Below, in pieces: positions 9,801 to 32,281 of a stretch of DNA of 39,284 nucleotides (the stretch's first letter is position 1; every line of letters starts with the position of its first letter). Source of the DNA: a virus. The position numbers were made by a program, and so were the translations under genes. The DNA is taken from positions 1 to 39,284 of the IMG/VR virus record IMGVR_UViG_3300045988_101290; one strand, written 5' to 3'. The notes beneath the pieces are model-generated. The model had not been told where the DNA came from and ran no database searches. It saw nothing but the letters and a program-made list of their open reading frames with translations.

Positions 9801-9816
9801 TGTGCGACGTCGCACA
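9801..9816. repeat. 16-bp perfect palindrome TGTGCGACGTCGCACA (parS-like site S1)
   Basis: Intergenic, ending at the endolysin RBS. Member of a 5-copy family (20271, 22805, 28144, 31004). Confidence 0.7.
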
Positions 9817-9830
9817 GGAAGGAGATCAAA

Positions 9831-10934
9831 ATGGCATTAAACGGAATAGATATAAGTAATCATCAGAAAGGACTCAATCTGAAGGATATAACTTGCGACT
9901 TTGTAATCTGTAAGGCTACGGAGGGAACAACCTTCGTAGATAAATATTGTGACGGTTTCATGCAACAGGCTATGAAACTTGGCAAAAAAGTAGGCGTGTA
10001 TCATTTTGCGAGCGGCAAAACAACCGGAAAAGCTGAAGCGGATTTCTTTTTGAAGAATGTACAGGGATATATTGGAAGAGCAATCTTGATCTTGGATTGG
10101 GAAGGAGACGCAGTAAAGAAAGGCGTAGGATATGCAAAAGAATTCCTGGATCGCGTGCTGGAGAAGACGGGAATCAAACCTATGTTATACAGCTACAACA
10201 ATTGCATCAATGCTTATGACTGGTCAGCAGTCAAAAACGCAGACTATGGCCTTTGGAACGCTGGCTACTACAATGGATATACAGAAATGGGATACACTCC
10301 GAAAGCACCTCTGAAAGGAGGACTTGGAGCCTGGGGAAGCTGTGCGATGTATCAGTATACTTCAAGTGGGAAATTAGCAGGTTGGTCTGGCCATCTCGAT
10401 TTAGATGTATTCTATGGAGACGCAGCTGCATGGGACAAATACGCTGGCGGTTCGGCCGGAGCCGGAACATCTATTGCAAAACCAGCACCCGCACCAATTC
10501 CTGCAGTAAATCCAACGAATCAGAGCTTGAAAAATGCACAGATCCATATTAATAACTTTACGGGCGCTGGAATTCCTGAAGATGGAAAGAACGGTCCGAA
10601 GACACGCAAAGGATTAATTATGGCATTACAGACTGCTTGCAATATGGATTACAATTCTGGTTTGACCGTAGACGGAAAAATCGGAGCGAAGACTAATGCT
10701 GCGCGTGACCTCCATTATGTAAAACGTGGAGAGAAGCAGTATCTTGTTACATTCGTTGAAATCGGACTTACAGCACTTGGATATTATAGCGGAGCAGTAG
10801 AAGCGCCAGGAATTTTCGGCGGTGGGTTGGAAACAGCAGTAGATAAATTCCAGAATGACACCAGTCTCAACAACGACAAAGTAGCCGGAAGGAATGTTAT
10901 GGATATGATCCTTAGAAAAATGGGATGTATTTAA
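9831..10934 (+). CDS. endolysin: GH25 muramidase domain plus C-terminal peptidoglycan-binding repeats
   Basis: N-terminus NGIDISNHQ...DFVICKATEG...VGVYHFA is typical of GH25. The C-terminus carries PG_binding_1-like repeats (DGKNGPKTRKGL, VDGKIGAKTNAA). Confidence 0.9.
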   Translation: MALNGIDISNHQKGLNLKDITCDFVICKATEGTTFVDKYCDGFMQQAMKLGKKVGVYHFASGKTTGKAEADFFLKNVQGYIGRAILILDWEGDAVKKGVGYAKEFLDRVLEKTGIKPMLYSYNNCINAYDWSAVKNADYGLWNAGYYNGYTEMGYTPKAPLKGGLGAWGSCAMYQYTSSGKLAGWSGHLDLDVFYGDAAAWDKYAGGSAGAGTSIAKPAPAPIPAVNPTNQSLKNAQIHINNFTGAGIPEDGKNGPKTRKGLIMALQTACNMDYNSGLTVDGKIGAKTNAARDLHYVKRGEKQYLVTFVEIGLTALGYYSGAVEAPGIFGGGLETAVDKFQNDTSLNNDKVAGRNVMDMILRKMGCI

Positions 10935-10948
10935 ATTGAGATTAACGT

Positions 10949-10984
10949 GAAGTAACAGGGGGAAATTCTCCGCCCTGTTACTTC
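10949..10984. terminator. strong 12-bp-stem hairpin, bidirectional terminator candidate
   Basis: GAAGTAACAGGG...CCCTGTTACTTC lies between the convergent endolysin and the minus-strand block. It has no clear T-run. Confidence 0.55.
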
Positions 10985-11004
10985 ATTAAATGGGAAGACC
11001 AAGA
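10985..11004. repeat. right arm of the perfect 20-bp inverted repeat
   Basis: ATTAAATGGGAAGACCAAGA is the reverse complement of 9131..9150. It lies 29 nt beyond the stop of cassette B1 in that cassette's coding direction. Confidence 0.9.
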
Positions 11005-11033
11005 TTTATTCAATAGCTTCAAATTACTAAAGA

Positions 11034-11357
11034 TTAAACAATCGCTTTCACAGATAAACCTTTGTCTAAAAATACAATTCGGTAGGTGCCCCAACCGCCA
11101 GCGAATCTTGGAATAGTTATAGTGCCGTTTTTACCTCCAGTAGCACCTATTGCATTTGACGATACATACGCTTGTGCTGTCGAAACATCTGTGTCGCTAA
11201 ACGATATACAAATCGGTTGAGCAGCCTCCAATTGACTACTAATTAGAAGAAGTGCAACTACAGTTCTACTTCTTGTAATCCCAGAGAATTGCAGCTTTCG
11301 CTCAATGTTACTTTGATCAACATAAGCCGAATTTATTTCAAGTGCTTTCTTGCTATT
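11034..11357 (-). other. silent tail-fibre tip cassette B1 (NSK + 104 codons + stop)
   Basis: Part of track ORF 11034..11411, whose start is TTG with no RBS. It begins at the core AAT AGC AAG and is beta-rich. Confidence 0.45.
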
Positions 11358-11642
11358 TTGTTTAAGAAATTTTTGAAAGAATTCCACGTTCGATTGAATA
11401 TCGAATATCAAGTTTCATACCATATCTATATAATACTATCAGTCCGTATGTACCATTAATATATCTATATCCAACGGCAAGATATCTTGATTCGGCTATA
11501 AAATTTTTAAAGAACGTTCCTTCTTTCGGAAATCTGTTCTTAGTCACTGCATCCTTTACACATGCATCAAGTCCACCAAGCGCTTCATATTCCGGGTCTC
11601 GATAATGTATTTCCGAAGTATCAATCTGAGCCTTGCTATTTA
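11349..11642. repeat. direct repeat copy 1 (294 bp; core-A1-core)
   Basis: Manual alignment to 11897..12190 gives 20 substitutions and no indels, with a period of 548 bp. Confidence 0.9.
11362..11640 (-). other. silent tail-fibre tip cassette A1
   Basis: Part of track ORF 11362..11667 (GTG start, no RBS). Begins at TTA AAT AGC AAG. Contains EALGG and NRFPKEGTFF motifs that resemble the expressed tip. Confidence 0.45.
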
Positions 11643-11905
11643 ACCTCACAAGTAAAATCACTTGCACTGATTATTGACGCATAACTCCAATTGCTTAGTT
11701 TGACCTCAAATCTACCGTTTGCATATTTGATACTACCTTCTCCCACGCTTGAAATCTGAGTTGACAAAGAAGCGAACGCATAAAAATATGCTGTGTTATA
11801 ATCTCCAAAAGCCATGAAAGAAAAATGACTTGTGTCTTTTGGGATAACACATATAGTGTCTTTATCGTTTGTACTTACCTTTGCGGTAAAAAATGCCTTG
11901 CTATT
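11636..11905 (-). other. silent tail-fibre tip cassette B2
   Basis: Part of track ORF 11636..11959 (TTG start, no RBS). Contains VIPKDTSHFSFMAFG, compared with LPKDTKYGYGSG in the expressed tip. Its stop TAG lies inside the next core. Confidence 0.45.
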
Positions 11906-12190
11906 TTGTTTAAGAAATTTTTGAAAAAATTCCACTTTCGATTGAATATCGACTATCAAGTTTCAGACCATATCTATATAATACTATTAGTCCGTATGTA
12001 CCATTAACATATCTATATCCAACGGCAAGATATCTCGAACCGGCTATAAAACTTTTAAAGAACGTTCCTTCTTTCGGAAATCTGTTCTTAGTCACTGCAT
12101 CCTTTACACATTCATCAACTCCACCAAGAGCATGATATTCCGAGTCTTGATAATATATTACTGAAGTATCAATCTGAGCCTTGCTATTTA
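11897..12190. repeat. direct repeat copy 2 (294 bp; core-A2-core)
   Basis: See copy 1. The two copies share a ~58-nt block of complete identity (TGTGTAAAGGATGCAGTGACTAAGAACAG...). Confidence 0.9.
11910..12188 (-). other. silent tail-fibre tip cassette A2 (paralogue of A1)
   Basis: The conserved part of track ORF 11910..12350. The remaining 5' part of that ORF is antisense to the miaB fragment and its promoter. Confidence 0.45.
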
Positions 12191-12220
12191 AAACACAATA
12201 GCTGCTGATCAGAATAAATC

Positions 12221-12249
12221 TTGAAAAACTTGTAATACTAACGTATAAT
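12221..12249 (+). promoter_or_regulatory. sigma-A-type promoter TTGAAA-17-TATAAT driving the miaB fragment
   Basis: -35 at 12221..12226, a 17-nt spacer, and -10 at 12244..12249, which is 37 nt upstream of the ATG at 12287. Confidence 0.6.
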
Positions 12250-12286
12250 ATTGTAACGCCATTAATGAGAGAAAGGAATTGCAATA

Positions 12287-12496
12287 ATGTATACAAACAA
12301 CGAAGAATTCGAAAAGATGTTAGAAACAATTGATATAGATAAAGAACCACCAGCTGATGATACTGAAAGACAGTATTATTTTATCAAAAAAGCAAGGAAA
12401 TATGTAAAAGAGGAATCAGAGAAACTGGGCCGCCCATTATTCTTTGCTACCGTAACATTCGGTTGTCAGATGAACCCGGTATCCGTGAATTATTAA
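12287..12496 (+). pseudogene. miaB: 5' fragment of tRNA methylthiotransferase miaB (first ~63 codons), predicted to be completed by the host gene after integration
   Basis: ...ERQYYFIKKARKYV...GRPLFFATVTFGCQMN matches the N-terminal extension and first cluster cysteine (GCQMN) of clostridial-type MiaB. The frame then diverges (PVSVNY) and stops. Confidence 0.6.
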
Positions 12497-12516
12497 GCAT
12501 TCAATATGAAACATAC

Positions 12517-12552
12517 AAAAGCCCTGGAAACATTGGATTTCCGGGGCTTTTT
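12517..12552. terminator. bidirectional rho-independent terminator
   Basis: AAAA GCCCTGGAAA cattgga TTTCCGGGGC TTTTT lies between the miaB fragment and the 3' end of the integrase gene. Confidence 0.7.
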
Positions 12553-14244
12553 CTATCTGTACAATAATGTGTGCGTTAATCCGTTTTTAAAAACGATCTC
12601 TGCAATACGCTTATCCAGAACAACGATGTGATCAACGATAGAATTGACAAATGCTTTCATAGATTCTTCATCCAATGCAGCAAGTCTGGAATAGTCTATA
12701 TAGTCACCACTGTTGATCTTGTGCGAGATAAGGAATTGAGATGCGGATTTAAGGAAGGCTGCCTGATCAACATTCTCGGAAATAGAAGAGGACTCTAAAC
12801 CCTTGATGCTATTTTCCAGCTTTATTCGGTCAACCTCCAGCTTTGACTTCATCTCAAGAAATTCTTTTTCATCCATTCCATCGTCGTCAAAGAGATATGC
12901 TTTCTTTAGCCGCTCCAGAGCACGATCCGTCCGCTGGAGCTTCTCTTTCAATTCCGTCGTTTTACTCTCATCAGTAGCACCACTGGATATAGGCTTACCG
13001 GACAGCAGCTCTGATCCGGAACGTCCAAACAGTAGATCAAGAGTATCCTGAAGACTGGAAGCAGAGATACCGACCACATCGGAAAAAGAAACGTGGGAGA
13101 GAATGACCCGCTCCAGGGATTCACAGTCTTTGATAAACCTTCGGCTCTTTGATGCATCGACCATTGCGGCTATATAATTAAGCACAAATGGACCAATCCT
13201 GACGTCGCTGACATTCAGGTTATCACAGTTCTTTTTCTGATATTTCCCGGTGCAGGCGTAAGAGGACGGCCGGAAGCCATCACCTTTGCGGCTGTCTTTG
13301 CCTTTTACCTGATATCCGGAGCCACACTTTCCGCAGATCATTAACCCGGCAAACACATTACATCTTTTCCGGATTGGATGGAAGACAGAAGTGTTTCGGT
13401 TTTGACTGTTTGCATCCATCCGTCGGTTAACTTCGTCCCATATATTGGGATCAATGAGCGGCGGGAAGACACCTTTGATGTAGATGACCTCATCATCGGA
13501 TTTCTTCTTTCCTCTGGCGCTCTCGCGGTAATTATACCGGTAATCGCCTTTGTTGATCGGATTCCGTAAAAAGTCCGCGACTGTCTTCGAAGTCCATTCC
13601 CCACCTCGTTTGGTAGGAATATTATGAGAATTGTTATAATCGCAGATAGTAACGGATGATCCGCCGTCCAGATACATCTGATACATAGCTTTGGCATAAG
13701 GAGCTTCTTTCTTTGAATGGACAGGACACTTCTTCTCGGCATCCCAATCCCACCCGTAAGGAACTCTTGCACCATTCCATTGTTTGTTCTGTGCACGTCC
13801 GATCATTACGTCTTTAACACGCTCAGACGTCAATTTACGCTCCAATTCGGCGAACACTAGTATAATCTTAAGGATAGCCTCACCGATGGCGCTAGAGGTG
13901 TCAAATTGTTCATTCAGTGATATGAACGTAACATTGTTGTATTTGAAATCATCGTACATGAGAGAGAAGTCCACAAGGTTTCTTGTAATCCGGTCTATCT
14001 TATATACGATCACGTGAGAGACCTGGCCAGATTTTACTTTCTCCATCATTCGCTCGAATGCAGGACGTTTCGTATTCTTACCGGACCGGCCTGCATCCTC
14101 AAATACCTCAATTCGCTTTTTATTAATGTGCAGCACGTGTTCGCAGTAGGCTCGCAACTCTTTCTTTTGAAATGGGAGAGAGTCCTTGTCGACCTGATAA
14201 CCAGTACTTACGCGGACATACAATGCTACTATTTTCTCGTCCAT
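12553..14244 (-). CDS. large serine recombinase (integrase)
   Basis: N-terminal resolvase domain (VALYVRVSTGYQ...SL..Q), recombinase domain, Cys-rich zinc ribbon and C-terminal coiled coil. Start taken at MDEKIV (ATG 14244), 8 nt after AAAGGA. Confidence 0.92.
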   Translation of the reverse strand: MDEKIVALYVRVSTGYQVDKDSLPFQKKELRAYCEHVLHINKKRIEVFEDAGRSGKNTKRPAFERMMEKVKSGQVSHVIVYKIDRITRNLVDFSLMYDDFKYNNVTFISLNEQFDTSSAIGEAILKIILVFAELERKLTSERVKDVMIGRAQNKQWNGARVPYGWDWDAEKKCPVHSKKEAPYAKAMYQMYLDGGSSVTICDYNNSHNIPTKRGGEWTSKTVADFLRNPINKGDYRYNYRESARGKKKSDDEVIYIKGVFPPLIDPNIWDEVNRRMDANSQNRNTSVFHPIRKRCNVFAGLMICGKCGSGYQVKGKDSRKGDGFRPSSYACTGKYQKKNCDNLNVSDVRIGPFVLNYIAAMVDASKSRRFIKDCESLERVILSHVSFSDVVGISASSLQDTLDLLFGRSGSELLSGKPISSGATDESKTTELKEKLQRTDRALERLKKAYLFDDDGMDEKEFLEMKSKLEVDRIKLENSIKGLESSSISENVDQAAFLKSASQFLISHKINSGDYIDYSRLAALDEESMKAFVNSIVDHIVVLDKRIAEIVFKNGLTHTLLYR

Positions 14245-14406
14245 AAATATCATCCTTTCCGTAAAAATGAGTATAAAAAATACACCTATACGGTGCTGAA
14301 AATTTATGGTACAATATCATTGCCGATGAATTATTGTACGTGCTCAGCACTGTATAGTATTTATCAAAAGGTCTCGGTGTTGGTAGCACCGGGGCTTTTT
14401 ATATTA

Positions 14407-14571
14407 TTAACTTGTTTGCGTAGGCATTAGATCATCCAGACATTCCTGCATAAATTGTTCTGTTATACAGGTATAGAGCTCGTCGGTTTGAGGGCGGATC
14501 TTAACATCTAATTCATGGACTATCTTATAATATAATTCCAATGCAACTTCATTTTCAAAAATATATATCAT
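14407..14571 (-). CDS. hypothetical small protein (54 aa)
   Basis: ATG 5 nt after AAGAGG, and 13 nt downstream of the zinc-ribbon gene stop. Too short to appear in the ORF track. Confidence 0.3.
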   Translation of the reverse strand: MIYIFENEVALELYYKIVHELDVKIRPQTDELYTCITEQFMQECLDDLMPTQTS

Positions 14572-14584
14572 AGATACCTCTTAA

Positions 14585-14878
14585 TTATTTGACTTTCCAT
14601 GTATGACCACAATCCTGGCAAACAGCAATAGTTGCATTGAGTGTTTTGTTGGCATGAACATTTAAGCCGGAACGTTTCTTTCCGCCAAAAAGAGTCTTTA
14701 ACCATCCAAAACAAATAAAAGAGATTGGCTTCCACCACCATCCGATGAGCACCCAGTAAAAGCAACCCTTACTTTCCTTTGGTGCTTCGATAACAACCTT
14801 GTTTGTGCCAGCTCCGATGGATGCTGTCTGTTCTCTTTGTATTAAAACGTTTTCGCTTCCGCATTTTGGACAATTCAT
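14585..14878 (-). CDS. zinc-ribbon membrane protein
   Basis: MNCPKCGS...CQDCGH forms a split zinc ribbon around a Trp-rich hydrophobic segment (FYWVLIGWWWKPISFICFGW). AGGAGGG RBS lies 7 nt upstream of the ATG at 14878. Confidence 0.55.
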   Translation of the reverse strand: MNCPKCGSENVLIQREQTASIGAGTNKVVIEAPKESKGCFYWVLIGWWWKPISFICFGWLKTLFGGKKRSGLNVHANKTLNATIAVCQDCGHTWKVK

Positions 14879-15460: not shown

Positions 15461-15482
15461 GCCTTTTCCTCTTTATTTTTTT
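15443..15482. terminator. bidirectional terminator
   Basis: AAGAGGGGAAGGC tctaa GCCTTTTCCTCTT followed by a T-run. It overlaps the stop of the repressor gene. Confidence 0.6.
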
Positions 15483-15865
15483 ATACCATCTGCTACGTTC
15501 TTAAAATACTCACGTATCACAGTCTTAGATTTATCGTCAAGAGAATGATAGGTCTTCATCATTTCGATGATCGCATCATAGAATGCATTCCCATTTCCAT
15601 CATATTCCAACAGATCCTCAACATAATAACCGACTTCTTGCATTGGCGAAAGCTCAATAAACATCTTATCGCTATCTCCTCCGTTTCGGAGCCAGTCCTC
15701 ATTGACACGAAAAGTTTTACATATGAGAGAGATTACTGCATCACTAGGAGCATTTTTTCCTACTTCGTAGGCACCAATATTCCCGCGTGATATTTTCAAC
15801 TTATCGGCAAATTCTTGCTGCGTAAGTTTTAATTCTTTTCTTAACGCTTTGATACGCTCATTCAT
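15473..15865 (-). CDS. CI-like repressor (XRE HTH N-domain, no S24 peptidase domain)
   Basis: MNERIKALRKELKLTQQEFADKLKISRGNIGAYEVGKNAP. GGGAGG RBS. Divergent from a consensus early promoter. 130 aa in total. Confidence 0.8.
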   Translation of the reverse strand: MNERIKALRKELKLTQQEFADKLKISRGNIGAYEVGKNAPSDAVISLICKTFRVNEDWLRNGGDSDKMFIELSPMQEVGYYVEDLLEYDGNGNAFYDAIIEMMKTYHSLDDKSKTVIREYFKNVADGIKK

Positions 15866-15892
15866 TGGTACACCTCCCTTCGTTCTGGGTTC

Positions 15893-15921
15893 ATCATAGC
15901 ACAATAAAATTTATAATTCAA
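15893..15921 (-). promoter_or_regulatory. repressor promoter TTGAAT-17-TATGAT (minus strand)
   Basis: -35 is the complement of 15916..15921 and -10 is the complement of 15893..15898. Confidence 0.5.
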
Positions 15922-19979: not shown

Positions 19980-20414
19980 ATGTATAAAGTATTTGGACAG
20001 ATGGACACGGAAGAATTAAATGCGTGTGCAAAGGGATTGAGAGAAGAAGGCGATAACGATCGTATCAGATTATTAGCAAAGGAAAATGGGATTCCGGAGT
20101 TTTTTGCTGATATGTACATAGAAACCGGAGAAGAGTTTACAGATCCAATGACTGCAGCTATGGGAAAACTGGATATAGAAGCAGCAGAGTACAAAAACAA
20201 CCAGATCCCAGTCGAGCCGATCATTGACTTCCTGAAAGCGGAATGCGCGAATGAAGATTTTGCGGTGCGCGTGCGACATCGCACAAAATCTGTACAGGAA
20301 TGCATGAAGAAAATTGAAGACAACTGCAAGAAAATCCAGAAAGATACCGGGAAACATTATGCAGCAGACATGGTGGTATTCAACTGGGCGAAGGATTACT
20401 TCAAGGAGGCGTAA
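19980..20414 (+). CDS. PcfK-like protein
   Basis: 144 aa, directly upstream of a PcfJ-like gene. Assigned from size and synteny. Confidence 0.5.
   Translation: MYKVFGQMDTEELNACAKGLREEGDNDRIRLLAKENGIPEFFADMYIETGEEFTDPMTAAMGKLDIEAAEYKNNQIPVEPIIDFLKAECANEDFAVRVRHRTKSVQECMKKIEDNCKKIQKDTGKHYAADMVVFNWAKDYFKEA
20271..20285. repeat. parS-like palindrome S2 (c)GTGCGACATCGCACA
   Basis: 15 of 16 positions identical to S3 and S4. Lies inside the PcfK-like CDS. Confidence 0.6.
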
Positions 20415-20418
20415 AGAG

Positions 20419-22377: not shown

Positions 22378-23850
22378 ATGGATTTTGAAGTAAAGACAGT
22401 GATCGACAATATTGATGACATGACAGACATCATCAAAAACCAACTGAATGATATAGCAGAAGGGTTCGTAAGCGTCGGCTATTACCTGAGAAAAACGGAT
22501 GAGACCATGCTCTACAAGCAGAAAGGGTACAAAACAATCTACGAATACGCCAAAGATACATTCGGAATCGGCAGATCAACAGCCAGTAGATTCATGGAGA
22601 TCAATCAAAAATACAGCAAGGATGGGTATTCTCCAGAGATCGATCTGAAATGGTCTGGATACGGCAGCAGTAAACTCACAGAAATGCTGGGACTTCCGGA
22701 AGATGTACAGGAAGCAATCCCGGTGGATGCAACGGTCAGAGATATTCGAGATGCAAAAGGAATCATCCGGGAAACTGAACACAACTATTCGGATCAGATG
22801 GAGCTGTGCGACATCGCACAGCCGGATCCGGCCGAAACAAACTGGCTGACGGAATTGATAAAACAGTATTTTTCCAAAGAAAACAGAGAAGCATTCCAGA
22901 AAATGACGGATTGGCTCAGAAAAGATGAACCGGAAAAGGACATAACAGTCAGCATCCTGCTGATCATCAACCCGACAAAGTTCAAAATGATCCGGCTGGA
23001 GCGCGCCAACGTCATGCTGACAGTAGACAAAATCAAGGTAATGCCATACCGGAACCAGGGAGAACAGCAGGAATACACCTATATAGATTTTGGCCGAGCT
23101 TTTGAAACGATGTTCTATCCAGCCGGGATAAATACACCAATCAATGAAGCGTATAAAAATGTATACGGAGAGTCGTATTACAAAGAAAAACATTATCCAG
23201 AAGGGAAAAATGATGCAAACGATACAGGAAATCGAGAAAGTGCTCCGAAAGATGAAGCCGGAACTGATAGATCGGTGCCAGGAGAAACCAGAGTTGAAGG
23301 AGCATCTGAGACAACAAAAGAAGAAACAGAACTATCAGACACAGAAAGCGACGTTTGTGATGGAGAAAAAAGCAGAGAAGCCGAACACACTGAAAATGAA
23401 CCGACAGCAGAGGAGAGCTCGGGAAACGGAACTACGCAGACGCAAAAAGAGGCAAAAGAAACAACTGAAGCACCTAACTCCGCTGCAGTATCTGCAGAAG
23501 AAGAAACTGCGGAAGTAAAAACGGAGATTTGCCATGGAGATACTGATGAAACTCAGATTCCGGGACAGACAGAATTAGTCAAAGATTTCCCTGAATACTG
23601 TCCGCCGGATATGAATACTCCGGAACAACAGGATCAATCAGAAGTCAAGCCGGCATACGCCACCAGAAGATTATATATATCCTCTGTCGATGCCGATGCG
23701 GCAGCAGAATACATGGGAAAAGCCATGGAAAAGGCTATACGCAATATGCCGGGAGTAAGTTTCGGAGTCTTGACGAAGGAATCATTCTGGAAAGAATTCT
23801 TCGAAACCGAGGTTGATCGGAATGGAGCTGAGATTGAATGTGTGAATTAA
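22378..23850 (+). CDS. ParB/KorB-like HTH protein with long acidic disordered region
   Basis: YKTIYEYAKDTFGIGRSTASRFMEI...LTEMLGLPEDVQEAI resembles the ParB HTH and LxLPxxVQ region. No GERRxR CTPase box was seen, and no ParA gene is present in the genome. Confidence 0.5.
   Translation: MDFEVKTVIDNIDDMTDIIKNQLNDIAEGFVSVGYYLRKTDETMLYKQKGYKTIYEYAKDTFGIGRSTASRFMEINQKYSKDGYSPEIDLKWSGYGSSKLTEMLGLPEDVQEAIPVDATVRDIRDAKGIIRETEHNYSDQMELCDIAQPDPAETNWLTELIKQYFSKENREAFQKMTDWLRKDEPEKDITVSILLIINPTKFKMIRLERANVMLTVDKIKVMPYRNQGEQQEYTYIDFGRAFETMFYPAGINTPINEAYKNVYGESYYKEKHYPEGKNDANDTGNRESAPKDEAGTDRSVPGETRVEGASETTKEETELSDTESDVCDGEKSREAEHTENEPTAEESSGNGTTQTQKEAKETTEAPNSAAVSAEEETAEVKTEICHGDTDETQIPGQTELVKDFPEYCPPDMNTPEQQDQSEVKPAYATRRLYISSVDADAAAEYMGKAMEKAIRNMPGVSFGVLTKESFWKEFFETEVDRNGAEIECVN
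22805..22820. repeat. parS-like palindrome S3 TGTGCGACATCGCACA
   Basis: Identical to S4. Lies inside the ParB-like gene itself. Confidence 0.7.
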
Positions 23851-24239
23851 TGTTCCCGAAACCAACCAGGAAGAAAAAAAGGAAACACCACCCAGCTCCG
23901 ATCGTAGACACAGTAAAAGGTGAATGCTTCCTGTGCCGACTGGAAGGCATCCGCCGGCAGCAGTACACGGAAGAACATCATGTGTTTTATGGTGGCGGAC
24001 TGAGAAAAGTCAGTGAGGAGAACGGCTTTAAAGTCTATCTGTGTAGAGATCACCACAAAGACGGACCAAGAGCCGCACATAATTGCAGAGAGACGCGTGA
24101 ACTATTATGCCGGATATTTCAGAGAAAGTACGAAGAAACCCATACGAGAGAAGAATTCCGAGCATTAGGTATAAAGAATTATTTGGAGGATGAGCATGAT
24201 GACATTACAAGAGATATTTCGAGTGCAGGAAAGCTATAA
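23850..24239 (+). CDS. NinG/HNH-like zinc-binding nuclease candidate
   Basis: MFPKP...CFLC...EEHHVFYGG...LCRDHH pattern. The TAATG start overlaps the previous stop. Confidence 0.4.
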   Translation: MFPKPTRKKKRKHHPAPIVDTVKGECFLCRLEGIRRQQYTEEHHVFYGGGLRKVSEENGFKVYLCRDHHKDGPRAAHNCRETRELLCRIFQRKYEETHTREEFRALGIKNYLEDEHDDITRDISSAGKL

Positions 24240-25407
24240 ATTGCCGGACGCAATCATGGAAGTACTGATGTCTAAAGAAGCAGAAAAATATATAAGGGTG
24301 GTAAAAGATAATAAAATCGATATTCGTGACACGTTCCAGGAAGAACAGGGCGATCGGAACAGATTGAAACAAGATTTTACACCAGACTGCCTCTGCAGAC
24401 TGGTAGCGGATCTGATGAAGAAAGGTAGCTGCCTGGATATGTGTTCCGGAACAGGCGCACTCAGTAAAGAGGCAGCACGAACACATAATATCGAGATTGA
24501 AGAACAGGAATACAGTGAAAGAACAATCCCGTTTGCAATTCTGGACGCATGTGTGAACGGGCTGACTGGTTGGATAAGTCGGAACGACTGCTTGAGAGAT
24601 GAAACATATCAGGTGTACAGGTTGACGAAACATCAGGATATTAGTCTCCCAATCATAGAAGAGACAGATAGGGAAGTAGGTCAATACAATAATGTGATCA
24701 TGAATCCGCCATATTCCATGAAATTTCCGGATGCAGAGTGGTATCCGATAGTCGGATTTACGATACCGAAAAGTAAAGCGGATTACGGCTTCCTACTCCG
24801 AGGGCTACAGCACCTGAAAGAAGACGGAAGACAGATTGCAATCCTGCCACACGGAGTACTGTTCAGAGGTGCAGGAGAAGGAAAAATAAGGGAGTGGCTT
24901 ATAAAACAGCACTTGATTAATGCGGTAATAGGACTTCCGGACAAACTTTTCCTGAATACAAGCATTCCGGTATGTATCGTGATCATGGAGCGGGATTCGC
25001 CAGATATATTCTTCATTGACGCAAGTGAAGAATTCCAAAAGCAATCCGCACAAAACGACATGACGGATCAGCAACTGAAGAAAATAGTTGATTGTTTCCG
25101 CGAGAGAACAGACGTAGAGAGATATGCTCATAGAGCCTTATACGAGGAAATAGAGAAAAATGACTACAACCTAAACATTCCAAGATATGTTGATATCTTT
25201 GAGGAAGAAGAACTTCCAGACATAGGAGCAATACTAAACACTCTTGGCCAGATAGAGACAGAAGAACGAAAGACCAAAAGCCGGTTATACGATATTCTTG
25301 AAAACTTAACAGGAAGTCCGGAAGACATAAGGAATGTGAAAAAGCATCAGAGCTTAATGAAAGGGGAAAGACATGAATCTACAGTGCCGACAGATACACA
25401 TAACTGA
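24196..25407 (+). CDS. hsdM: N6-adenine DNA methyltransferase (type I HsdM-like, gamma class)
   Basis: Motif I DMCSGTGAL and motif IV NVIMNPPYS. Confidence 0.85.
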   Translation: MMTLQEIFRVQESYKLPDAIMEVLMSKEAEKYIRVVKDNKIDIRDTFQEEQGDRNRLKQDFTPDCLCRLVADLMKKGSCLDMCSGTGALSKEAARTHNIEIEEQEYSERTIPFAILDACVNGLTGWISRNDCLRDETYQVYRLTKHQDISLPIIEETDREVGQYNNVIMNPPYSMKFPDAEWYPIVGFTIPKSKADYGFLLRGLQHLKEDGRQIAILPHGVLFRGAGEGKIREWLIKQHLINAVIGLPDKLFLNTSIPVCIVIMERDSPDIFFIDASEEFQKQSAQNDMTDQQLKKIVDCFRERTDVERYAHRALYEEIEKNDYNLNIPRYVDIFEEEELPDIGAILNTLGQIETEERKTKSRLYDILENLTGSPEDIRNVKKHQSLMKGERHESTVPTDTHN

Positions 25408-25810
25408 AATATGCAATATAGAACGGGCAGTAACTGAGAAAACATATAAGGCAGGGAGCTGCTACATAAAACTGAGCGCAGTAGATGATTATGTCGGGCA
25501 ACTGCAGAAACCTGGGGCAATAGATCCGAGATATGCAGTATTAGAACCAAAAGAAGAAATCAACGCAGATTACATGTATATAGCTATTTGCAGGAGTTTT
25601 CCGGAATTCTTAAGAAAATACAGAACAACTATAAATCTACAATTCAACACATTGAAGCGCTTCGAAATACGTTGGCACGACGATAGGGAAATACAAAAAT
25701 ATATTGTAAATGCACTCAAGACAGTAGAGAAAGAAATAAATCTGGTTGAAGACCAGATAGAACATGAGAAAGAAGTAAAAAGATGGTATCTGGAAAAAAT
25801 GATGATGTAG
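25373..25810 (+). CDS. hsdS: half-size specificity subunit (single target-recognition domain, HsdS-like)
   Basis: 145 aa with one TRD-like region plus a C-terminal helical conserved region (EIQKYIVNALKTVEKEINLVEDQIEHEKEVKRWYLEKMM). Overlaps the hsdM end by 35 nt. Confidence 0.55.
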   Translation: MNLQCRQIHITEICNIERAVTEKTYKAGSCYIKLSAVDDYVGQLQKPGAIDPRYAVLEPKEEINADYMYIAICRSFPEFLRKYRTTINLQFNTLKRFEIRWHDDREIQKYIVNALKTVEKEINLVEDQIEHEKEVKRWYLEKMMM

Positions 25811-26961: not shown

Positions 26962-27657
26962 ATGAGTTTACAAGAATGGGCAAAAAATGAAGTTGAAATC
27001 GCATGCAAAAGAGAAAATCCGGATAGAAAAGAAGGCGAATTTGATTATGGATGCGCTTGCTACGAAAGTGCATTAAAGGCATTTGAGAGCTTATGCGAAG
27101 ATGGTCACAGTGGTATGAGTATCGGATTCACAAAACAGATTTTGAATAGACTGATCGATGGAAAGCCACTGACTCCGATAGAAGATACAGAGGAAATGTG
27201 GAAAAGACCATGGACAGATAAGAAAGGAAAACAATATCAGTGTTCGAGAATGAGTAGCTTGTTTAAAACAGTAACTCCGAATGGAGAAATAAAGTATTCA
27301 GACATTAATAGGTGTTACTGTGTTAATCGCAATCATCCTAATTATGGATACCACAATGGGTTTATCAGAAGTATATATGATGCGATGTATCCGATCGCGA
27401 TGCCATACGCACCGGCGGATAAACCGGACAAAATAGTTTGTGATGAGTTACTCACAGATCCTAAAAATGGAGATTATGATACAAAAGCAATAATTTACAT
27501 AGAAAAACCGGATGGGAAGAAAGTGAAAATAAACAGATATTTTAAAGAATCCGAAGAATCATTTAAGGAAATATCATGGTTAGAATATCAAATCCGCAGA
27601 TACAAAGACTGGAGAAGGAGGAAGTGGTTAGGAAATGACGAGGAAAGACATTCTTAA
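26962..27657 (+). CDS. hypothetical protein
   Basis: 231 aa with GGAGAG RBS. Confidence 0.6.
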   Translation: MSLQEWAKNEVEIACKRENPDRKEGEFDYGCACYESALKAFESLCEDGHSGMSIGFTKQILNRLIDGKPLTPIEDTEEMWKRPWTDKKGKQYQCSRMSSLFKTVTPNGEIKYSDINRCYCVNRNHPNYGYHNGFIRSIYDAMYPIAMPYAPADKPDKIVCDELLTDPKNGDYDTKAIIYIEKPDGKKVKINRYFKESEESFKEISWLEYQIRRYKDWRRRKWLGNDEERHS

Positions 27658-27838
27658 AAAATACGGATTCAGCTGGATGAGCAACGTCAACCTGAAGGAA
27701 GAGCTTTCGGAACAGGCGGCAGCAGAATTCGAAGATCTGATAAGAACCCTGGCCGAACATAACCGTGGACCGGAACCACCAGAAACAGGCTGGAAGAAAC
27801 AGATGTACAGCCAATTCATGAAAGGAGCAGGCAGATGA
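27635..27838 (+). CDS. hypothetical protein
   Basis: 67 aa. Confidence 0.5.
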   Translation: MTRKDILKKYGFSWMSNVNLKEELSEQAAAEFEDLIRTLAEHNRGPEPPETGWKKQMYSQFMKGAGR

Positions 27839-28002
27839 CGCGAAACATGATCATCGTGATATGGACAACAGTATTCCTGCATCCTGTGATTTTTCCGTGT
27901 GTTTTACACACAGCAAAGGAGATAGAAAAATGGTGGGACAAGAAGAGAGTGCTGTGGCACGTAGAGCAGCTCCGGAAGATAGAAGAAAAATATAAAGAAT
28001 AG
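27835..28002 (+). CDS. small membrane protein (55 aa)
   Basis: ATGA start/stop overlap with the previous gene, and a hydrophobic N-terminus. Confidence 0.35.
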   Translation: MTRNMIIVIWTTVFLHPVIFPCVLHTAKEIEKWWDKKRVLWHVEQLRKIEEKYKE

Positions 28003-28143
28003 CACCAACCGGGTATTGTATCACACGCAACCGGACGATATAGAATTCCAGCCGGCAGCAGAATGCACCGTGCATAAAGAAGGAGGAAAAAGGAAACAGA
28101 CATTATGGTAGAAAAGGTGAATAAATAACCGAAGAAATAAACA

Positions 28144-28159
28144 TGTGCGACATCGCACA
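28144..28159. repeat. parS-like palindrome S4 TGTGCGACATCGCACA
   Basis: Lies in the 298-bp non-coding region, 141 bp upstream of the tyrosine recombinase gene. Confidence 0.7.
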
Positions 28160-28300
28160 GACGAATAAAGAAAAAGGGTGAGTGAAAGTAACATAAAAAC
28201 AAGCAGTAGATCCGTCCTGCCAGACACATATCTACTGCTCATCACTTATACCTAAGGACATTATAACATAGATGCCTCTTAGGTTTCAAGGAGGGTTACT

Positions 28301-29338
28301 ATGTATAATACCAATATTAAAGCGGAAGTTATTAATAATGTCATTTTCCGGATGTCTCAGTATGTAGACAGAACAACTCTGGACATCCTGCAGAAGATAC
28401 TGGAAGAACAACTGGTTGCGGTAAACATGGAAGAGATTACCACACTCCCAGCAGAGTTAAAAGTATCTTACGAAGAGCAGAACCGGTACTACATCGGTCT
28501 TATGATGATCAAAAAGAAAAATCTCCGGCAGGTCACAAAGAACCAGTACAGAGATGCTGCTACGAGATTAGCAACAGCGCTGAATAAACCATTGAATAAA
28601 ATTGATGAGATTGACATCGATTATTATTTGCACTGGTATTCGGAACGATCTGGAAAGAAAGGCAATAAGAATACAGCAGCAACCGTAAATAATGAGAGAC
28701 GGTACCTGTCTGCCTTCTTCACATGGATGCGGAAAGAACACTTTATAACTTTCAACCCAGTGGAGAATACGGAAGCACTGAAAGAAGTGAGAAAGCCGAT
28801 TGACTACTTCCGGCCAGCAGAGATGGAAGAGTTAAGGGAAGGCTGTGAATCCAAACGCGACCGTGCCATTATTGAAGTGTTCCGCAGTACCGGAGCAAGA
28901 ATCGGAGAGATTGCGCCACTGAACCGGGAAGACATTGACTGGAGTACAGGAGATATCATGATCCTGAGTGAAAAGAGCGAACGCTATAGAGTAATCTATC
29001 TGGATGAGGTGGCAAGGTTCCATCTAAAGAGATACCTCGACACCCGTACAGATGATAATCCGGCACTGTTCGTTGCTCAGAGGAAACCTTTTGCGAGACT
29101 TTCCGTCAATGGATTAAGGGACGTTATCAAGCGGATCGGAAAGAGAGAAGGTATGTCATGCAGGGTATATCCGCACAAGATGCGTAAAACGCTCGGCATG
29201 AATCTCAAGAACCGTGGAGCAGATATTGGTATTATACAAGAAATCATGGGACATGCAAGTCCGGAAGTAACAGCAAGATACTATGCAGAATCCACACCAG
29301 AAACCTTACGAAGCGTCAGAATCAGGACGTCGGCGTAA
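28301..29338 (+). CDS. tyrosine recombinase (second recombinase; candidate invertase/resolvase)
   Basis: Catalytic signature is present: STGARIGE (Arg), YPHKMRKT (His-x-x-Arg) and MGHASPEVTARYY (His...Tyr). AAGGAGGG RBS. Confidence 0.85.
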   Translation: MYNTNIKAEVINNVIFRMSQYVDRTTLDILQKILEEQLVAVNMEEITTLPAELKVSYEEQNRYYIGLMMIKKKNLRQVTKNQYRDAATRLATALNKPLNKIDEIDIDYYLHWYSERSGKKGNKNTAATVNNERRYLSAFFTWMRKEHFITFNPVENTEALKEVRKPIDYFRPAEMEELREGCESKRDRAIIEVFRSTGARIGEIAPLNREDIDWSTGDIMILSEKSERYRVIYLDEVARFHLKRYLDTRTDDNPALFVAQRKPFARLSVNGLRDVIKRIGKREGMSCRVYPHKMRKTLGMNLKNRGADIGIIQEIMGHASPEVTARYYAESTPETLRSVRIRTSA

Positions 29339-29348
29339 AGGAGATAAT

Positions 29349-29537
29349 ATGAATCACGAAGGGTATAAGGACACAACAGCAGAAAAGGCAATAGCAAGGT
29401 ATAACAGGATGCCGTATCATATGCGGAGAGCGTTAAAAGATCTGCAGGATATAGCCAGTCTGTTCGGATTCGAAATCCTGATCGTTCGCGACAGACGAAC
29501 AGGAAGGAGATATATAGTTGAAGATCAGACCGATTAA
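29349..29537 (+). CDS. hypothetical small protein
   Basis: 62 aa with AAGGAG RBS. Confidence 0.5.
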   Translation: MNHEGYKDTTAEKAIARYNRMPYHMRRALKDLQDIASLFGFEILIVRDRRTGRRYIVEDQTD

Positions 29538-29949
29538 CGAAGATAAATATGGCATTAACAAATATCAGTTTCTTGAAGTAAAATATCACTGTTTACAATA
29601 TCCAGAATGGAGAAGGGAACTCGCAGAACTTACAAATACTATAAAAGCCATGCAATATGGCCAGGAAGGAAAAGGCAGTCCGAGCCAGGCGTCCGCTACA
29701 GAGCGCCTGGCTATCAGGCGTGTAGAACTGGAAGAAAAGTGCAAGCGAATCGAACAGACAGCAATTGAAGCAGATCCGGAGATCTATCAGTGGTTGCTGG
29801 AAGGGGTAACTACAGAATATGCTACATACAGATACTTGAGGGATGCAAAAGGGATGCCGTGCGGAAAGAAAATGTACTACGACAGAAGACGGAAGTTCTA
29901 TTACCTCCTGTCAACAAAATTTAAAAAGAGGGGGACTCAGGATACATAA
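29518..29949 (+). CDS. ArpU/RinA-like late transcription regulator candidate
   Basis: 143 aa. TTG start 8 nt after GGAAGGAG. Assigned from its position just upstream of terS and its size. Confidence 0.45.
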   Translation: MKIRPINEDKYGINKYQFLEVKYHCLQYPEWRRELAELTNTIKAMQYGQEGKGSPSQASATERLAIRRVELEEKCKRIEQTAIEADPEIYQWLLEGVTTEYATYRYLRDAKGMPCGKKMYYDRRRKFYYLLSTKFKKRGTQDT

Positions 29950-30001
29950 AAGTGTGTTATTATGATATTGTCCGAAAATTGAAAAGGACATACTCACCCT
30001 G

Positions 30002-30034
30002 AAGGTGGCAGCAGATGATGTTGCCACCTTTTTA
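30002..30034 (+). terminator. rho-independent terminator
   Basis: AAGGTGGCA...TGCCACCTT (9-bp stem) followed by TTTTT. Confidence 0.75.
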
Positions 30035-30108
30035 CGTGAAAATAAAAGATAAAACGAGATTGTTGAAAGATAAAAATCAAAAACGAAATGAATGAGGGGT
30101 GGTGAGGC

Positions 30109-30879
30109 GTGGCAAGAGCACCCGATCAGAGGGCTATTGAAGCGAAAGAATTATATGACAAAGGGCTGAAATTAATTGAGATTGCTAAGGAACTGGATGT
30201 TCCGGTTGGGACAGTCCGGAGCTGGAAGAACAGACAGTGCTGGGATAATGCAACGTTGCAAAAGAAAAAACGCAACGTTGCGAAAAAAAGAGGCGGTCAG
30301 CCGGGAAACAAAAATGCCAAAGGGCATGGCGGGACAGGGCCGCCGGGAAACAAGAATGCAGTTAAGACAGGAGAGTTCGAAACTCTCTTTTTTGATACCC
30401 TGAATCCGGAAGAACTGCAGCTGGCCGAGACGATTGGACTCGACAAAGAGCAGCTGCTCCTACAGGAAATACAGCTACTTACGGTTCGTGAATACCGCAT
30501 GTTGCACCGAATAGAAGCATTGAAAAATGCTGAAACACAGCAAAACGAGGATGAGAAGTCGCCGCCGGGAATGACGGTAGTAAAATACACCGATGGACTG
30601 GAAAAAGGAGACTGTACAGAACTAAAAGAATATGCCGGAATACTTGGCCAGATCCAGCAGATAGAAGATGCACTCACAAGAGTGCAGGCCAAGAAACAGA
30701 AGGCAATCGAAGCCATACATAAGTTCGGCTACGATGATGCAAAGTTAGAACTTGCTACGATGCAGTTAGAACTCCAGATCATGAAACAGGATGGAGGATC
30801 GCATGAAACAGCAGACGACGGATTCATGGATGCCATGAACGCTACAGCTTCAGAAGTTTGGGGTGATCAGGATGTATGA
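30109..30879 (+). CDS. terS: terminase small subunit
   Basis: N-terminal HTH (IEIAKELDVPVGTVRSWK), duplicated GNKNA motifs, and a position upstream of terL. GTG start. Confidence 0.75.
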   Translation: MARAPDQRAIEAKELYDKGLKLIEIAKELDVPVGTVRSWKNRQCWDNATLQKKKRNVAKKRGGQPGNKNAKGHGGTGPPGNKNAVKTGEFETLFFDTLNPEELQLAETIGLDKEQLLLQEIQLLTVREYRMLHRIEALKNAETQQNEDEKSPPGMTVVKYTDGLEKGDCTELKEYAGILGQIQQIEDALTRVQAKKQKAIEAIHKFGYDDAKLELATMQLELQIMKQDGGSHETADDGFMDAMNATASEVWGDQDV

Positions 30880-32281
30880 AAAGATCACAAATCTGAAGAA
30901 AAAGCTCCAGGCTATGAAGAAAAGCCGTCTACAGACAGTATATAATCAGATATTCAAGTTCAAACCGTTCTCAAAAAAGCAGAAACAGGTACTGACATGG
31001 TGGTGTGCGACGTCGCCTGTAAAAGATTACGATGGGATTATAGCAGATGGAGCTATCCGATCGGGAAAGACAGTGTGCATGTCGCTATCCTACGTGATGT
31101 GGGCGATGGAAACGTTCAATGGACAGAATTTCGCCATGTGTGGGAAAACCATCGGATCATTTCGAAGGAACGTACTGTTTTGGCTAAAACTCATGCTAAA
31201 GGCAAGAGGCTACGGTGTGGTAGACCACAGAGCCGACAACTTGATAGTGATCACAAGAGGAAAAACGACTAATAACTTCTACATATTCGGTGGAAGGGAC
31301 GAAAGCTCCCAGGACCTGATACAGGGAATCACACTGGCAGGAGTCTTCTTTGATGAAGTGGCGCTTATGCCGGAAAGTTTCGTGAATCAGGCTACCGGCC
31401 GATGTTCGGTAGATGGATCGAAGTTCTGGTTTAACTGCAACCCTTCCGGACCTTACCATTGGTTTAAAGTCAATTGGATAGACCGAGCTGTTGGATACAT
31501 TGGAAAAGAAAGGGCAGCAGAGTTAAGGGCGAAAGATGAATCGGTCAAGAATATCCTATACGTACATTTTGTTATGGATGATAACCTGAGCCTCAGCGAT
31601 GAGATCAAAGAAAGATACCGGAATACATACAGAGGGGTATTCTACAAACGTTACATTCTAGGCTTGTGGGCGATGGCGGAAGGTATTATCTATGACATGT
31701 TCGATGAAGAACGGCATGTAAAAAAGATAACAGAGTTTTTCCAGCTGCTGATAAACGGAAATAGATATGTAAGTTGTGACTACGGTACACAGAACGCTAC
31801 GGTCTTCCTGTTATGGAACAAGGGCGTAGACGGAACATGGTACTGTACCAGAGAATACTATTACTCCGGAAGAGAAAGGAAACAGCAGAAAACAGATTCA
31901 GAGTATGCTGCAGATCTGAAGAAGTGGTTGGAAGGAACGAAGATAAAAGCGATCATCGTGGATCCGGCAGCAGCTTCATTCATAACGGAATTACAGAAGA
32001 GAGGATACAACGTCATTAAAGCCAAGAATGACGTAGAAGACGGTATCCGTGTAGTAGGCACATGCCTGAACAGAGAAAAAATCAAATTCAGCGACGAATG
32101 CGTAAATACAAGAAAAGAGTTTGCTACTTACGTATGGGATGAAAAGGCAGCAGAAAGAGGAGAAGACAAACCGGTAAAACAGTTTGACCATGCAATGGAT
32201 GCAGTAAGATATTTCTGCTACACCATCTTAAATGCACAGAGAGCAAGAATTAAGAATAAAGCGAAAATGGGATTCCACTAA
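30872..32281 (+). CDS. terL: terminase large subunit (PBSX-type)
   Basis: Walker A motif GAIRSGKT, Walker B-like region GVFFDEV, and a C-terminal nuclease region. Confidence 0.92.
   Translation: MYEKITNLKKKLQAMKKSRLQTVYNQIFKFKPFSKKQKQVLTWWCATSPVKDYDGIIADGAIRSGKTVCMSLSYVMWAMETFNGQNFAMCGKTIGSFRRNVLFWLKLMLKARGYGVVDHRADNLIVITRGKTTNNFYIFGGRDESSQDLIQGITLAGVFFDEVALMPESFVNQATGRCSVDGSKFWFNCNPSGPYHWFKVNWIDRAVGYIGKERAAELRAKDESVKNILYVHFVMDDNLSLSDEIKERYRNTYRGVFYKRYILGLWAMAEGIIYDMFDEERHVKKITEFFQLLINGNRYVSCDYGTQNATVFLLWNKGVDGTWYCTREYYYSGRERKQQKTDSEYAADLKKWLEGTKIKAIIVDPAAASFITELQKRGYNVIKAKNDVEDGIRVVGTCLNREKIKFSDECVNTRKEFATYVWDEKAAERGEDKPVKQFDHAMDAVRYFCYTILNAQRARIKNKAKMGFH
31004..31016. repeat. partial parS-like site S5 TGTGCGACGTCGC
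   Basis: 13 of 16 positions identical to S1. Lies inside the terL CDS. Confidence 0.4.

Follow-up and report, generated by a model that had tools for sequence, protein, structure and literature searches.

A dispersed 16-bp palindrome in a temperate phage genome tracks the predicted recognition helix of an unannotated early protein

The IMG/VR virus record IMGVR_UViG_3300045988_101290 (39,284 nucleotides, analysed in full and called the window here) represents the whole genome, about 39 kb long and circularly permuted, of a temperate phage of siphovirus type; in a relative (L009), position 39284 is joined back to 1. Copies of a 16-bp palindrome are scattered over it, and one of them lies inside the gene of a protein that I call p490. 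This early-region protein belongs to an unannotated family common to phages and integrative and conjugative elements (ICEs) of Lachnospiraceae. The original prediction took p490 for a ParB-like protein and the palindromes for its parS-like centromere sites. Here I report that the type of palindrome inside the p490 gene follows the helix with which p490 is predicted to recognise DNA, and I argue that the task of p490 is probably to gate the late and lysis genes, not to segregate DNA.

Four palindromes in the window

I searched the window for TGTGCGACRTCGCACA on both strands, allowing up to 3 mismatches and taking the chance level from 100 shuffles. There were 10 strand-matches at 5 loci against 0.29 expected (the highest count in the 100 shuffles was 2), confirming that the 16-mers form a non-random family. 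The exact motif TGTGCGAYRTCGCACA starts at 9801, 22805 and 28144, and the copy at 20270 has 1 mismatch; those at 22805 and 28144 are identical (TGTGCGACATCGCACA), as had been claimed. The consensus TGTGCGA-YR-TCGCACA is two 7-bp arms around a flexible pyrimidine-purine (YR) step. The copy at 9801 is the perfect palindrome that had been predicted to abut the endolysin ribosome-binding site: its 3' end lies 0 nt from the Shine-Dalgarno (SD) sequence GGAAGGAG (9817-9824), and the endolysin ATG is at 9831.

Of the five places originally listed, four hold (S1 to S4, Table 1). The copy in the PcfK-like gene, given as 15 of 16 positions at 20271..20285, does have a single mismatch, but that range is the matching part of a full site at 20270-20285, where the relatives L120-L126 carry the exact 16-mer. 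The fifth place, at 31004 in terL, consists of the left arm and centre only; it is constant among 13 close terL alleles and absent from 3 more distant ones, and its right arm is incomplete in every relative. I regard this copy as doubtful and unproven and do not count it as a site, as chance or coding constraint could explain it. The weaker half-sites that had been proposed are at chance level. The arm TGTGCGA occurs 11 times in the window, 8 of them within the five loci, and the 3 isolated arms (10341, 12720 and 25891) compare with 3.7 expected; an arm search of the window detected no intact arm at 20899, 31074 or 37850. The 16-mer search likewise located no copy in the cI/cro region of the window.

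Table 1. Palindromes, genes and other features of the window
Feature	Position	Strand	Remarks
Tail genes	1-9118		
Holin	9549		
S1	9801..9816		TGTGCGACGTCGCACA, perfect palindrome; between holin stop and endolysin SD, end of late operon
GH25 endolysin with PG_binding_1 domain	9831..10934	+	directly downstream of S1
Large serine recombinase	12553-14253	-	
cI-like repressor	15473-15904	-	
Early rightward region	from 18588		Rep (REP_ORF2-G2P), RNase H, PcfK-like, PcfJ-like, p490, small nuclease-like protein
PcfK-like	19980-20414	+	Pfam PcfK
S2	20270..20285		CGTGCGACATCGCACA, one mismatch at position 1; within PcfK-like gene, frame V-R-H-R-T
PcfJ-like	20428-22377	+	Pfam PcfJ
p490	22378..23850	+	candidate binding protein
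Predicted recognition-helix segment	22564..22599	+	F-G-I-G-R-S-T-A-S-R-F-M, amino acids 63-74 of p490; tracks palindrome type
S3	22805..22820		TGTGCGACATCGCACA; within p490 gene, codons L143-C-D-I-A-Q148
Small Cys/His-rich protein	23838..24239	+	overlaps p490 end; PHROG 7566
Early rightward region, later part			N6-methylase and half S (specificity) subunit, then Tad3-like protein
S4	28144..28159		TGTGCGACATCGCACA; non-coding, early/late boundary, 141 nt upstream of tyrosine-recombinase start
Tyrosine recombinase	28301		
RinA/ArpU-like late activator candidate	29518..29949	+	first conserved late-region gene downstream of S4
terS, terL, portal, MuF, capsid	from 30109		
Doubtful degenerate copy	31004..31019		TGTGCGACGTCGCCTG, 3 mismatches, all in right arm; within terL, W-C-A-T-S-P

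The palindrome inside the p490 gene follows the predicted helix

A megablast search with window 18000-39284 returned no match among GenBank phages, and the comparative work therefore used IMG/VR and assemblies. In 39 IMG/VR loci encoding p490 relatives the sites recur at the same places. Loci that share the window allele of pcfK, pcfJ and the N-terminal part of p490 carry the 16-mer both inside pcfK and inside p490. These genes form a block that is exchanged among relatives (pcfK-pcfJ-p490 amino acids 1-374, window ~19998-23498). A different allele of the block (36-39% identity) has the palindrome TTGCACCGGTGCAA, again with one copy in pcfK and one in p490, and a third allele carries the palindrome TTGCGCCGGCGCAA, so that both intragenic palindromes change together with the exchanged block. 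I refer to TGTGCGAYRTCGCACA as type A, to TTGCACCGGTGCAA as type B and to TTGCGCCGGCGCAA as the third type; a fourth variant, TATGCGACGTCGCATA, occurs in conjugative elements.

The predicted recognition-helix segment of p490 changes along with the palindrome. Nine variants of the form xxxxR-[S/T/P]-[T/W]-A-x-R-[F/W]-M accompany an intragenic type A palindrome, five variants of the form ..[D/E]x[S/T][Q/K]VSR.. accompany type B, and the helices YGLGKSITSRFM, YGMNPSGVSRF[I/M] and YGIKKSAASRWM accompany the third type; RSTAS, for example, goes with TGTGCGA... and KSAAS with TTGCGCC.... In one near-isogenic pair, YGIKKSAASRWM (with the third type of site) and the A-type helix YGIKRSTASRWM are two positions apart. 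As judged from these alignments, the helix segment predicts the type of the intragenic palindrome in at least three classes. Every p490-like gene detected in loci fetched by the B pattern is of B/C type, and A-type lineages showed no B sites. The motif had been linked to the protein encoded at 22378..23850, and its co-variation with that protein in related phages had been proposed as a check; both are borne out, as the palindrome type tracks the p490 allele and its recognition helix.

Codon usage also points to the DNA. Among 21 unique homologues, the S3 codons are frozen in the window subfamily (TGC in 18/18, ATC in 17/17 and GCA in 18/18) and vary only where the motif permits, namely at the leucine (CTG/TTG) and the aspartate (GAC/GAT), while conserved residues neighbouring S3 use 2-5 codons. 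Selection thus appears to act on the DNA of the motif and not on the protein alone. In distant subfamilies the intragenic motif falls at residues 142, 176, 185, 208-222, 284, 292 or 461, and once in another frame; since residue position and frame vary, it is the DNA that is conserved. Genes of the p490 family nearly always carry a palindrome within their own coding sequence, so that the site within its own gene noted in the window proves to be a rule of the family. Furthermore, the spacing between arms is always 2 and the centre is always YR in 29/29 unique contexts not selected on the centre (CA 18, CG 8, TA 2, TG 1). The arm positions flanking the centre are invariant, and near-variants are rare and not compensatory. 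Symmetry of this kind would be that of a site for a protein dimer.

p490 has no recognisable relative of known function

I was unable to assign p490 to any Pfam or NCBIfam family, and the N-terminal 151 amino acids alone gave none either at E-values up to 10. Its only PHROG is 15077, of unknown function, and phmmer and profile searches of the PDB gave nothing relevant. Searches of Pfam and NCBIfam found no ParBc/CTPase domain (GxxRxxA box), in agreement with the original remark that p490 lacks an obvious N-terminal CTPase box, and HTH_ParB was not found by Pfam, NCBIfam, PDB sequence, profile or Foldseek searches. No ParB domain label is attached to any of ~240 homologues. A few homologues have a weak, precomputed assignment to PF01672 (Plasmid_parti_N), but this was not reproduced by hmmscan at E-values up to 10 and is a lead only. 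The family comprises more than 200 clusters per search, with no Pfam family and no names. The designation "ParB-like" thus finds no database support as regards homology, and because ParB/Spo0J homology is unsupported, the resemblance of the motif to the Spo0J parS consensus at 11 of 16 positions is a likeness of form only.

An AlphaFold model of p490(1-151), built from 72 diverse sequences, is confident (predicted local distance difference test score, pLDDT, 87; predicted template modelling score, pTM, 0.75). It is all-alpha, with a helix-turn-helix (HTH) formed by helices 54-62 and 66-79 at pLDDT above 95. Foldseek searches of the PDB with this model gave nothing (best E-value 3.6). The full-length model reaches pLDDT 61 and returned only noise from the PDB and only unnamed or mislabelled phage proteins from BFVD. 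In the predicted layout, an all-alpha HTH domain (amino acids 1-150) is followed by another folded domain (150-270); a disordered, acidic linker then leads to a conserved C-terminal domain (425-490), whose coding sequence overlaps the next gene.

The stretch IPGQTEL-KDFPEYCP and the C-terminal ~65 amino acids (23499-23850) are kept across p490 proteins of differing DNA specificity (89-98% identity in the window lineage) and constantly overlap the start of the Cys/His-rich gene that follows. The protein of that gene is 89-100% identical in all relatives, is constantly linked to the conserved p490 C-terminus, and has a weak likeness to a RecA-dependent nuclease (PF16786, E 0.0023, below the cut-off). 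The C-terminus of p490 may be a docking module for a partner protein.

Sites outside genes precede gene units

More than 118 IMG/VR stretches contain the exact motif. Among 107 unique contexts, 58 have an SD and start codon within 4 nt on one side of it, compared with 2% of random positions, and a terminator-like hairpin often lies 4-20 nt ahead of the site. The downstream genes recur: lysis genes after the holin, large serine recombinases, the first late-region gene and tail-region genes, and one non-genic context precedes a relaxase gene. Ahead of integrase genes (large serine recombinases) the motif abuts a TATAAT box. It also lies 4 nt upstream of a phage tRNA-Arg(CCU) gene in three stretches (L028 7352-7445, L049 8189-8282 and L002 8878-8971), with a tRNA-Ile(UAU) or tRNA-Trp gene nearby. 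From these tRNA contexts it follows that the common denominator is a position just before a gene unit, not the ribosome-binding site itself.

At S1, the holin-side homology among relatives stops at ~9824, and differing lysis genes lie beyond, each preceded by the motif and an SD. At S4, the motif in relatives lies ~197 bp upstream of the RinA-like gene, with an SD and a small open reading frame (ORF) directly after it, or ~156 bp upstream of the recombinase where the tyrosine recombinase cassette is present. The same layout recurs with a second palindrome family, in at least 120 further stretches. Moreover, three B sites occur in an unrelated phage lineage whose protein is of B type. One is intragenic and two adjoin gene starts; of the latter, one is at the start of the early region and the other just before a RinA-like gene followed by HNH, terS and terL genes, which is the position of 28144 in the window. 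That an unrelated lineage places its own type of palindrome at the same late-region entry fits the role there that had been suggested as a fallback.

A separate pattern is TGTGCGATATCGCACA, which occurs as closely spaced intergenic pairs (L198 5258-5303, L213 992-1030 and L243 7953-7990) in unrelated taxa (Gemmatimonadales, Candidatus Fimivivens and Bacteroides). These pairs are probably operators of another regulator family, unrelated to the phage system.

Relatives of p490 in conjugative elements

The Lachnospiraceae metagenome-assembled genome SIG339 has an ICE-like region with ParA (AAA_31), a 254-amino-acid p490-like protein, RepA_N, DUF3801 and a relaxase. The p490-like protein is 41% identical over the N-terminal domain (E 5e-27) and has an A-type helix; the region holds five exact copies of TGTGCGACGTCGCACA, each just before a gene start or beside a -35 box (one of them TTGACA). 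Three more homologues, on long chromosomal contigs, lie 4-6 nt downstream of a ParA gene and near ArdC-N and RepA_N genes. Within the gene they contain TATGCGACGTCGCATA, which differs symmetrically from the window motif at two positions, and in one of these loci it is repeated at the start of RepA_N. All four sampled ICE relatives are therefore directly downstream of ParA (AAA_31/CbiA), by 4-6 nt. The p490 family holds the position of ParB in these elements without being ParB, and it is in this context, not in homology, that the "ParB-like" idea survives.

Another IMG/VR stretch (L068, 9741-12571) has the motif and an SD before an amidase gene, and also encodes ParA, a canonical ParB (with the GHRR motif) and RepA_N. 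It may be a phage-plasmid; no p490-like gene was found in the stretch examined.

Other features of the window

The gene labels given originally (GH25 endolysin, PcfK-like, tyrosine recombinase and terL) are correct on a domain check, and neither the gene map nor domain searches revealed a ParA gene anywhere in the 39-kb window, as had been stated. Related prophages are hosted by Lachnospiraceae such as Dorea, Bariatricus and Sporofaciens. The candidate late activator matches PHROG 248, a transcriptional activator (E 2.3e-5), and PHROG 11237, with TIGR01637 (ArpU) below the cut-off at E 0.011.

The tyrosine recombinase is a second recombinase, as the phage also has a serine integrase. Together with its 140-nt leader (28062-29336) it is a cassette found in only some relatives (L009, L129, L143 and L150); relatives without it have a small ORF (MNHEGYQDPTAEKAV...) instead, and both versions carry the 16-mer near the 5' end. 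On the minus strand of the leader a strong sigma-70-like promoter points leftward (28289..28260; TTGAAA, 18 nt, TG-n-TATAAT; 11/12), the motif at 28159..28144 reads as a hairpin with a T-rich tail after it, and a 9-bp inverted repeat (GCAGTAGAT...ATCTACTGC, ~28203-28240) lies between the two. An antisense or small RNA of ~110 nt could arise from this strand (28134-28289).

At the end of the early region, 26962-27657 encodes a probable anti-defence protein: it has a match to Tad3 of Pfam (E 2.8e-32), an inhibitor of type I Thoeris, and many relatives keep it at 97-99% identity. The cassette at 24190-25810 encodes an N6-adenine methylase (N6_Mtase, E 7e-54) and, after it, a 145-amino-acid, half-size specificity subunit (Methylase_S, E 6e-4); it has no restriction subunit and is missing from all 39 related loci. 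Finally, a 295-nt direct repeat (11349-12191; copies 93% identical and 548 nt apart) doubles a pair of small ORFs on the minus strand (11034-12350), in the interval between endolysin and serine recombinase.

Comparison with known systems

Literature searches returned no occurrence of the exact 16-mers and 14-mers, nothing useful on PcfJ/PcfK, and nothing relevant on ICE centromere-binding proteins and palindromes. Which known system, then, does this one resemble? By mode of action, KorB and the mycobacteriophage stoperators come nearest. KorB of the IncP-1 plasmid RK2 is a global regulator of the ParB family with 12 palindromic OB operators (PMC11790492, PMC5577506). As with KorB, a short perfect palindrome is dispersed over the element that encodes the candidate protein, the sites take varied positions relative to promoters and operon starts, relatives partner a ParA-type ATPase, and the role would combine or alternate gene silencing and partition. 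Unlike KorB, p490 has neither a ParB/Srx CTPase domain nor a detectable ParB HTH, so that a CTP-dependent sliding clamp is not expected; the window lacks the partners KorA, TrbA and IncC; the sites lie mostly just upstream of an SD or gene start, after terminators, with one inside the protein's own gene; and the hosts are phages and ICEs of Firmicutes.

The stoperators of Cluster A mycobacteriophages, bound by repressors of the L5 gp71 type, offer another parallel. They are asymmetric sites of 13-14 bp, oriented with transcription, at which a monomeric immunity repressor is thought to stop elongation into downstream genes (PMC9283540, PMC6550527). Here too, one short site is repeated in transcribed regions, where it occupies narrow intergenic gaps just before genes (including tRNA genes), and specificity classes evolve with the protein. 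However, stoperators number in the tens per genome, whereas the window has only 4 sites (4-5 with the doubtful copy), these are palindromic, and none lies in the cI/cro region, unlike sites bound by an immunity repressor. Moreover, p490 is encoded in the early lytic region and not in the immunity locus, and the cI-like gene varies independently of the motif.

In the plasmid-prophage N15, the SopB centromere sites are dispersed. As with ParB-parS (Spo0J) and SopB of N15 (PMC7205306 for SopB/N15), the palindrome of the present system is 16 bp long, one copy lies within the gene of the candidate binding protein and others are dispersed in a phage, and the ICE relatives, though not the window, have an adjacent ParA. 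A cognate palindrome within or near the gene is found in the window and across the subfamilies, but this trait is not specific to ParB, and the phage differs in the lack of detected ParB homology and of ParA, in its integrative lifestyle and in sites tied to gene starts. The ribbon-helix-helix centromere binders of types Ib and II (ParG, omega, ParR) do not fit either, as the HTH model is all-alpha and the palindromes are single and not in repeat arrays. The arrangement of lambda O or SPP1 G38P, with an origin inside the initiator gene, is likewise not matched: there is a single palindrome per gene, and Rep (REP_ORF2-G2P) is encoded separately. On the whole, the system looks to be of the dispersed-operator or centromere-like kind, resting on a protein family that is unannotated and has several recognition codes.

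Weighing the explanations

If the palindromes were dispersed parS-like centromeres, p490 would segregate an extrachromosomal phage genome with a ParA from elsewhere. The ICE homologues favour this, being next to ParA and RepA_N and each having a 16-bp palindrome inside the gene, like spo0J, and a few homologues bear the PF01672 label, albeit one that hmmscan did not reproduce. This phage, however, lacks ParA and encodes a large serine recombinase and a cI-like repressor, so that it should integrate; p490 has no ParB/CTPase domain; and partition would not need the sites to be tied to gene starts, terminators and promoters, as they are. The partition role put forward in the original prediction is thus unlikely here. 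An action of the motif as RNA seems to me just as improbable. The transcript would form a 6-bp hairpin with a tetraloop near the ribosome-binding site and act as a translational operator, as an RNase site or, once processed, as a stabiliser of the 5' end, which would suit the frequency of SD sequences and start codons after the motif, the AU-rich linkers between upstream hairpin and motif, the predicted hairpin energies (-9 to -15 kcal/mol, z-scores -1.8 to -3.0) and a bias in the orientation of the centre relative to the downstream gene (CA 29 vs TG 4, in the sense direction). Yet no stem pair shows a compensatory change, and rare variants break pairing; positions 7 and 10 of the motif, which would fall in the loop, are invariant, with a centre that is only YR and a fixed spacing, as expected of dyad-symmetric protein contacts; the motif is also present in coding regions, 4 nt ahead of tRNA genes, and in or next to promoter hexamers; and its type tracks a predicted DNA-binding helix.

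I give a similarly low probability to a signal for recombination or replication, by which p490 would direct the nuclease-like protein, PcfJ or Rep to the palindromes for a nick or break that starts replication or module exchange. S1 is an exact mosaic joint, the alternative cassettes at the late-region entry each carry the motif, the p490 C-terminus overlaps the gene for the putative nuclease, and Rep, RNase H and PcfJ genes are the neighbours of the module; an origin within the initiator gene is familiar from lambda O and SPP1 G38P. On the other hand, each gene has one palindrome and neither an iteron array nor an AT-rich unwinding region, the exchanged block 19998-23498 does not end at motifs, the nuclease assignment is below threshold, and conserved regulatory sites are expected to look like mosaic joints anyway. 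Least probable of all, and very unlikely in my view, is a conserved Lachnospiraceae transcription factor whose site was adopted by many mobile elements. Many phages and ICEs of Lachnospiraceae (Dorea, Bariatricus, Sporofaciens and others) that are otherwise unrelated do share the identical 16-mer; it persists in relatives with another p490 type, and its form is CRP/LacI-like. But the low-GC genome contexts that I could recognise among the matches listed are phage- or ICE-like (p490-like genes, holin-lysin junctions, recombinases, a relaxase), the matches in high-GC taxa fit the ~550 chance matches estimated for 596 Gb, and the second and third palindrome types that track the p490 helix would be left unexplained.

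Several candidates encoded by the phage itself were tried and rejected as the source of the motif. The cI-like repressor has no site in the switch region, and its alleles vary (32-93% identity) while the motif is constant. A tyrosine recombinase site is unsuited to the 7-2-7 geometry, and relatives have the site without the recombinase. The target of the N6-methylase and its half S subunit was dismissed, as that cassette is absent from all 39 relatives, which keep the motif. A serine integrase attP was considered because the motif lies just upstream of many integrase genes, but the copies are dispersed and none is at the integrase of the window.

Some findings sit uneasily with p490 as the binder of a regulatory DNA site. 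In about 27 relatives whose p490 is of type B or C, the A-type sites ahead of the lysin gene and at the late-region start are nonetheless intact, and tblastn and a helix regular expression detected no second A-type protein in ~20 kb around each. Modules may have been exchanged recently in this highly mosaic lineage, co-resident elements may serve the sites in trans, or the gene-start sites may have a role that is independent of p490. The orientation bias of the centre is not predicted by a purely symmetric DNA site. As the palindrome lies inside the gene, some of the co-variation stems from physical linkage, and the loci were fetched in part by the palindrome patterns themselves, so that their counts are not unbiased. 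The assignment of p490 as an HTH DNA binder rests on the model together with co-variation, and Foldseek and PDB searches gave its N-terminal domain no structural or sequence relative of known function.

A proposed operator network

All things considered, I think it likely that p490 binds the 16-mer, as the alignments suggest. The full explanation, a network of operators like those of KorB or the stoperators and bound by a new HTH protein family, I would put at roughly 55%. Of the alternatives raised in the original prediction, its fallback of KorB-like regulation at the endolysin start and the late-region entry fits best, as the sites stand at gene starts far more often than chance allows. Binding, the sign of the regulation and the mechanism of release are what I infer; the site positions, their conservation, the helix co-variation and the gene contexts were observed directly.

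In this network, a dimer of the N-terminal HTH domain of p490 would bind the 16-mer as double-stranded DNA. Made from the early operon, p490 would occupy the four sites. S2 in pcfK and S3 in its own gene would provide feedback on the early operon, S4 would be a barrier where the early region meets the late one, ahead of the genes for the recombinase and the late activator, and S1 a barrier directly ahead of the endolysin ribosome-binding site. The bound dimer, with upstream terminators where present, would limit read-through transcription into the downstream genes. The late-activator and lysis genes would thereby be insulated until p490 is outnumbered by replicated copies or otherwise removed, titration being a guess.

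A wider picture can be offered only tentatively, and I hold it to be much less probable than the network itself. The p490 family would be an undescribed, structurally new family of DNA binders with at least 4 palindrome codes, set by a few helix residues, and with one site always within its own gene. In ICEs it would substitute for ParB beside ParA; in phages it would form a barrier upstream of late-activator, lysin and integrase genes that is relieved as genome copies outnumber p490, amounting to a replication-coupled timer of late genes and lysis. Shared codes would then lead to cross-regulation among co-resident elements.

Implications

If p490 does bind the palindrome, a large unannotated protein family of human-gut Lachnospiraceae phages and ICEs gains a function, and the ParA systems of these ICEs use an adaptor that is not ParB. 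The pairs of helix and palindrome would then be a natural recognition code, and operators and binders that are orthogonal to one another could be drawn from it for the engineering of gut Firmicutes. Since unrelated elements share identical sites, there may also be cross-talk among mobile elements that reside together. Finally, a barrier before the late-activator and endolysin genes would, if true, be a new means of timing late genes and lysis in temperate phages of Firmicutes.

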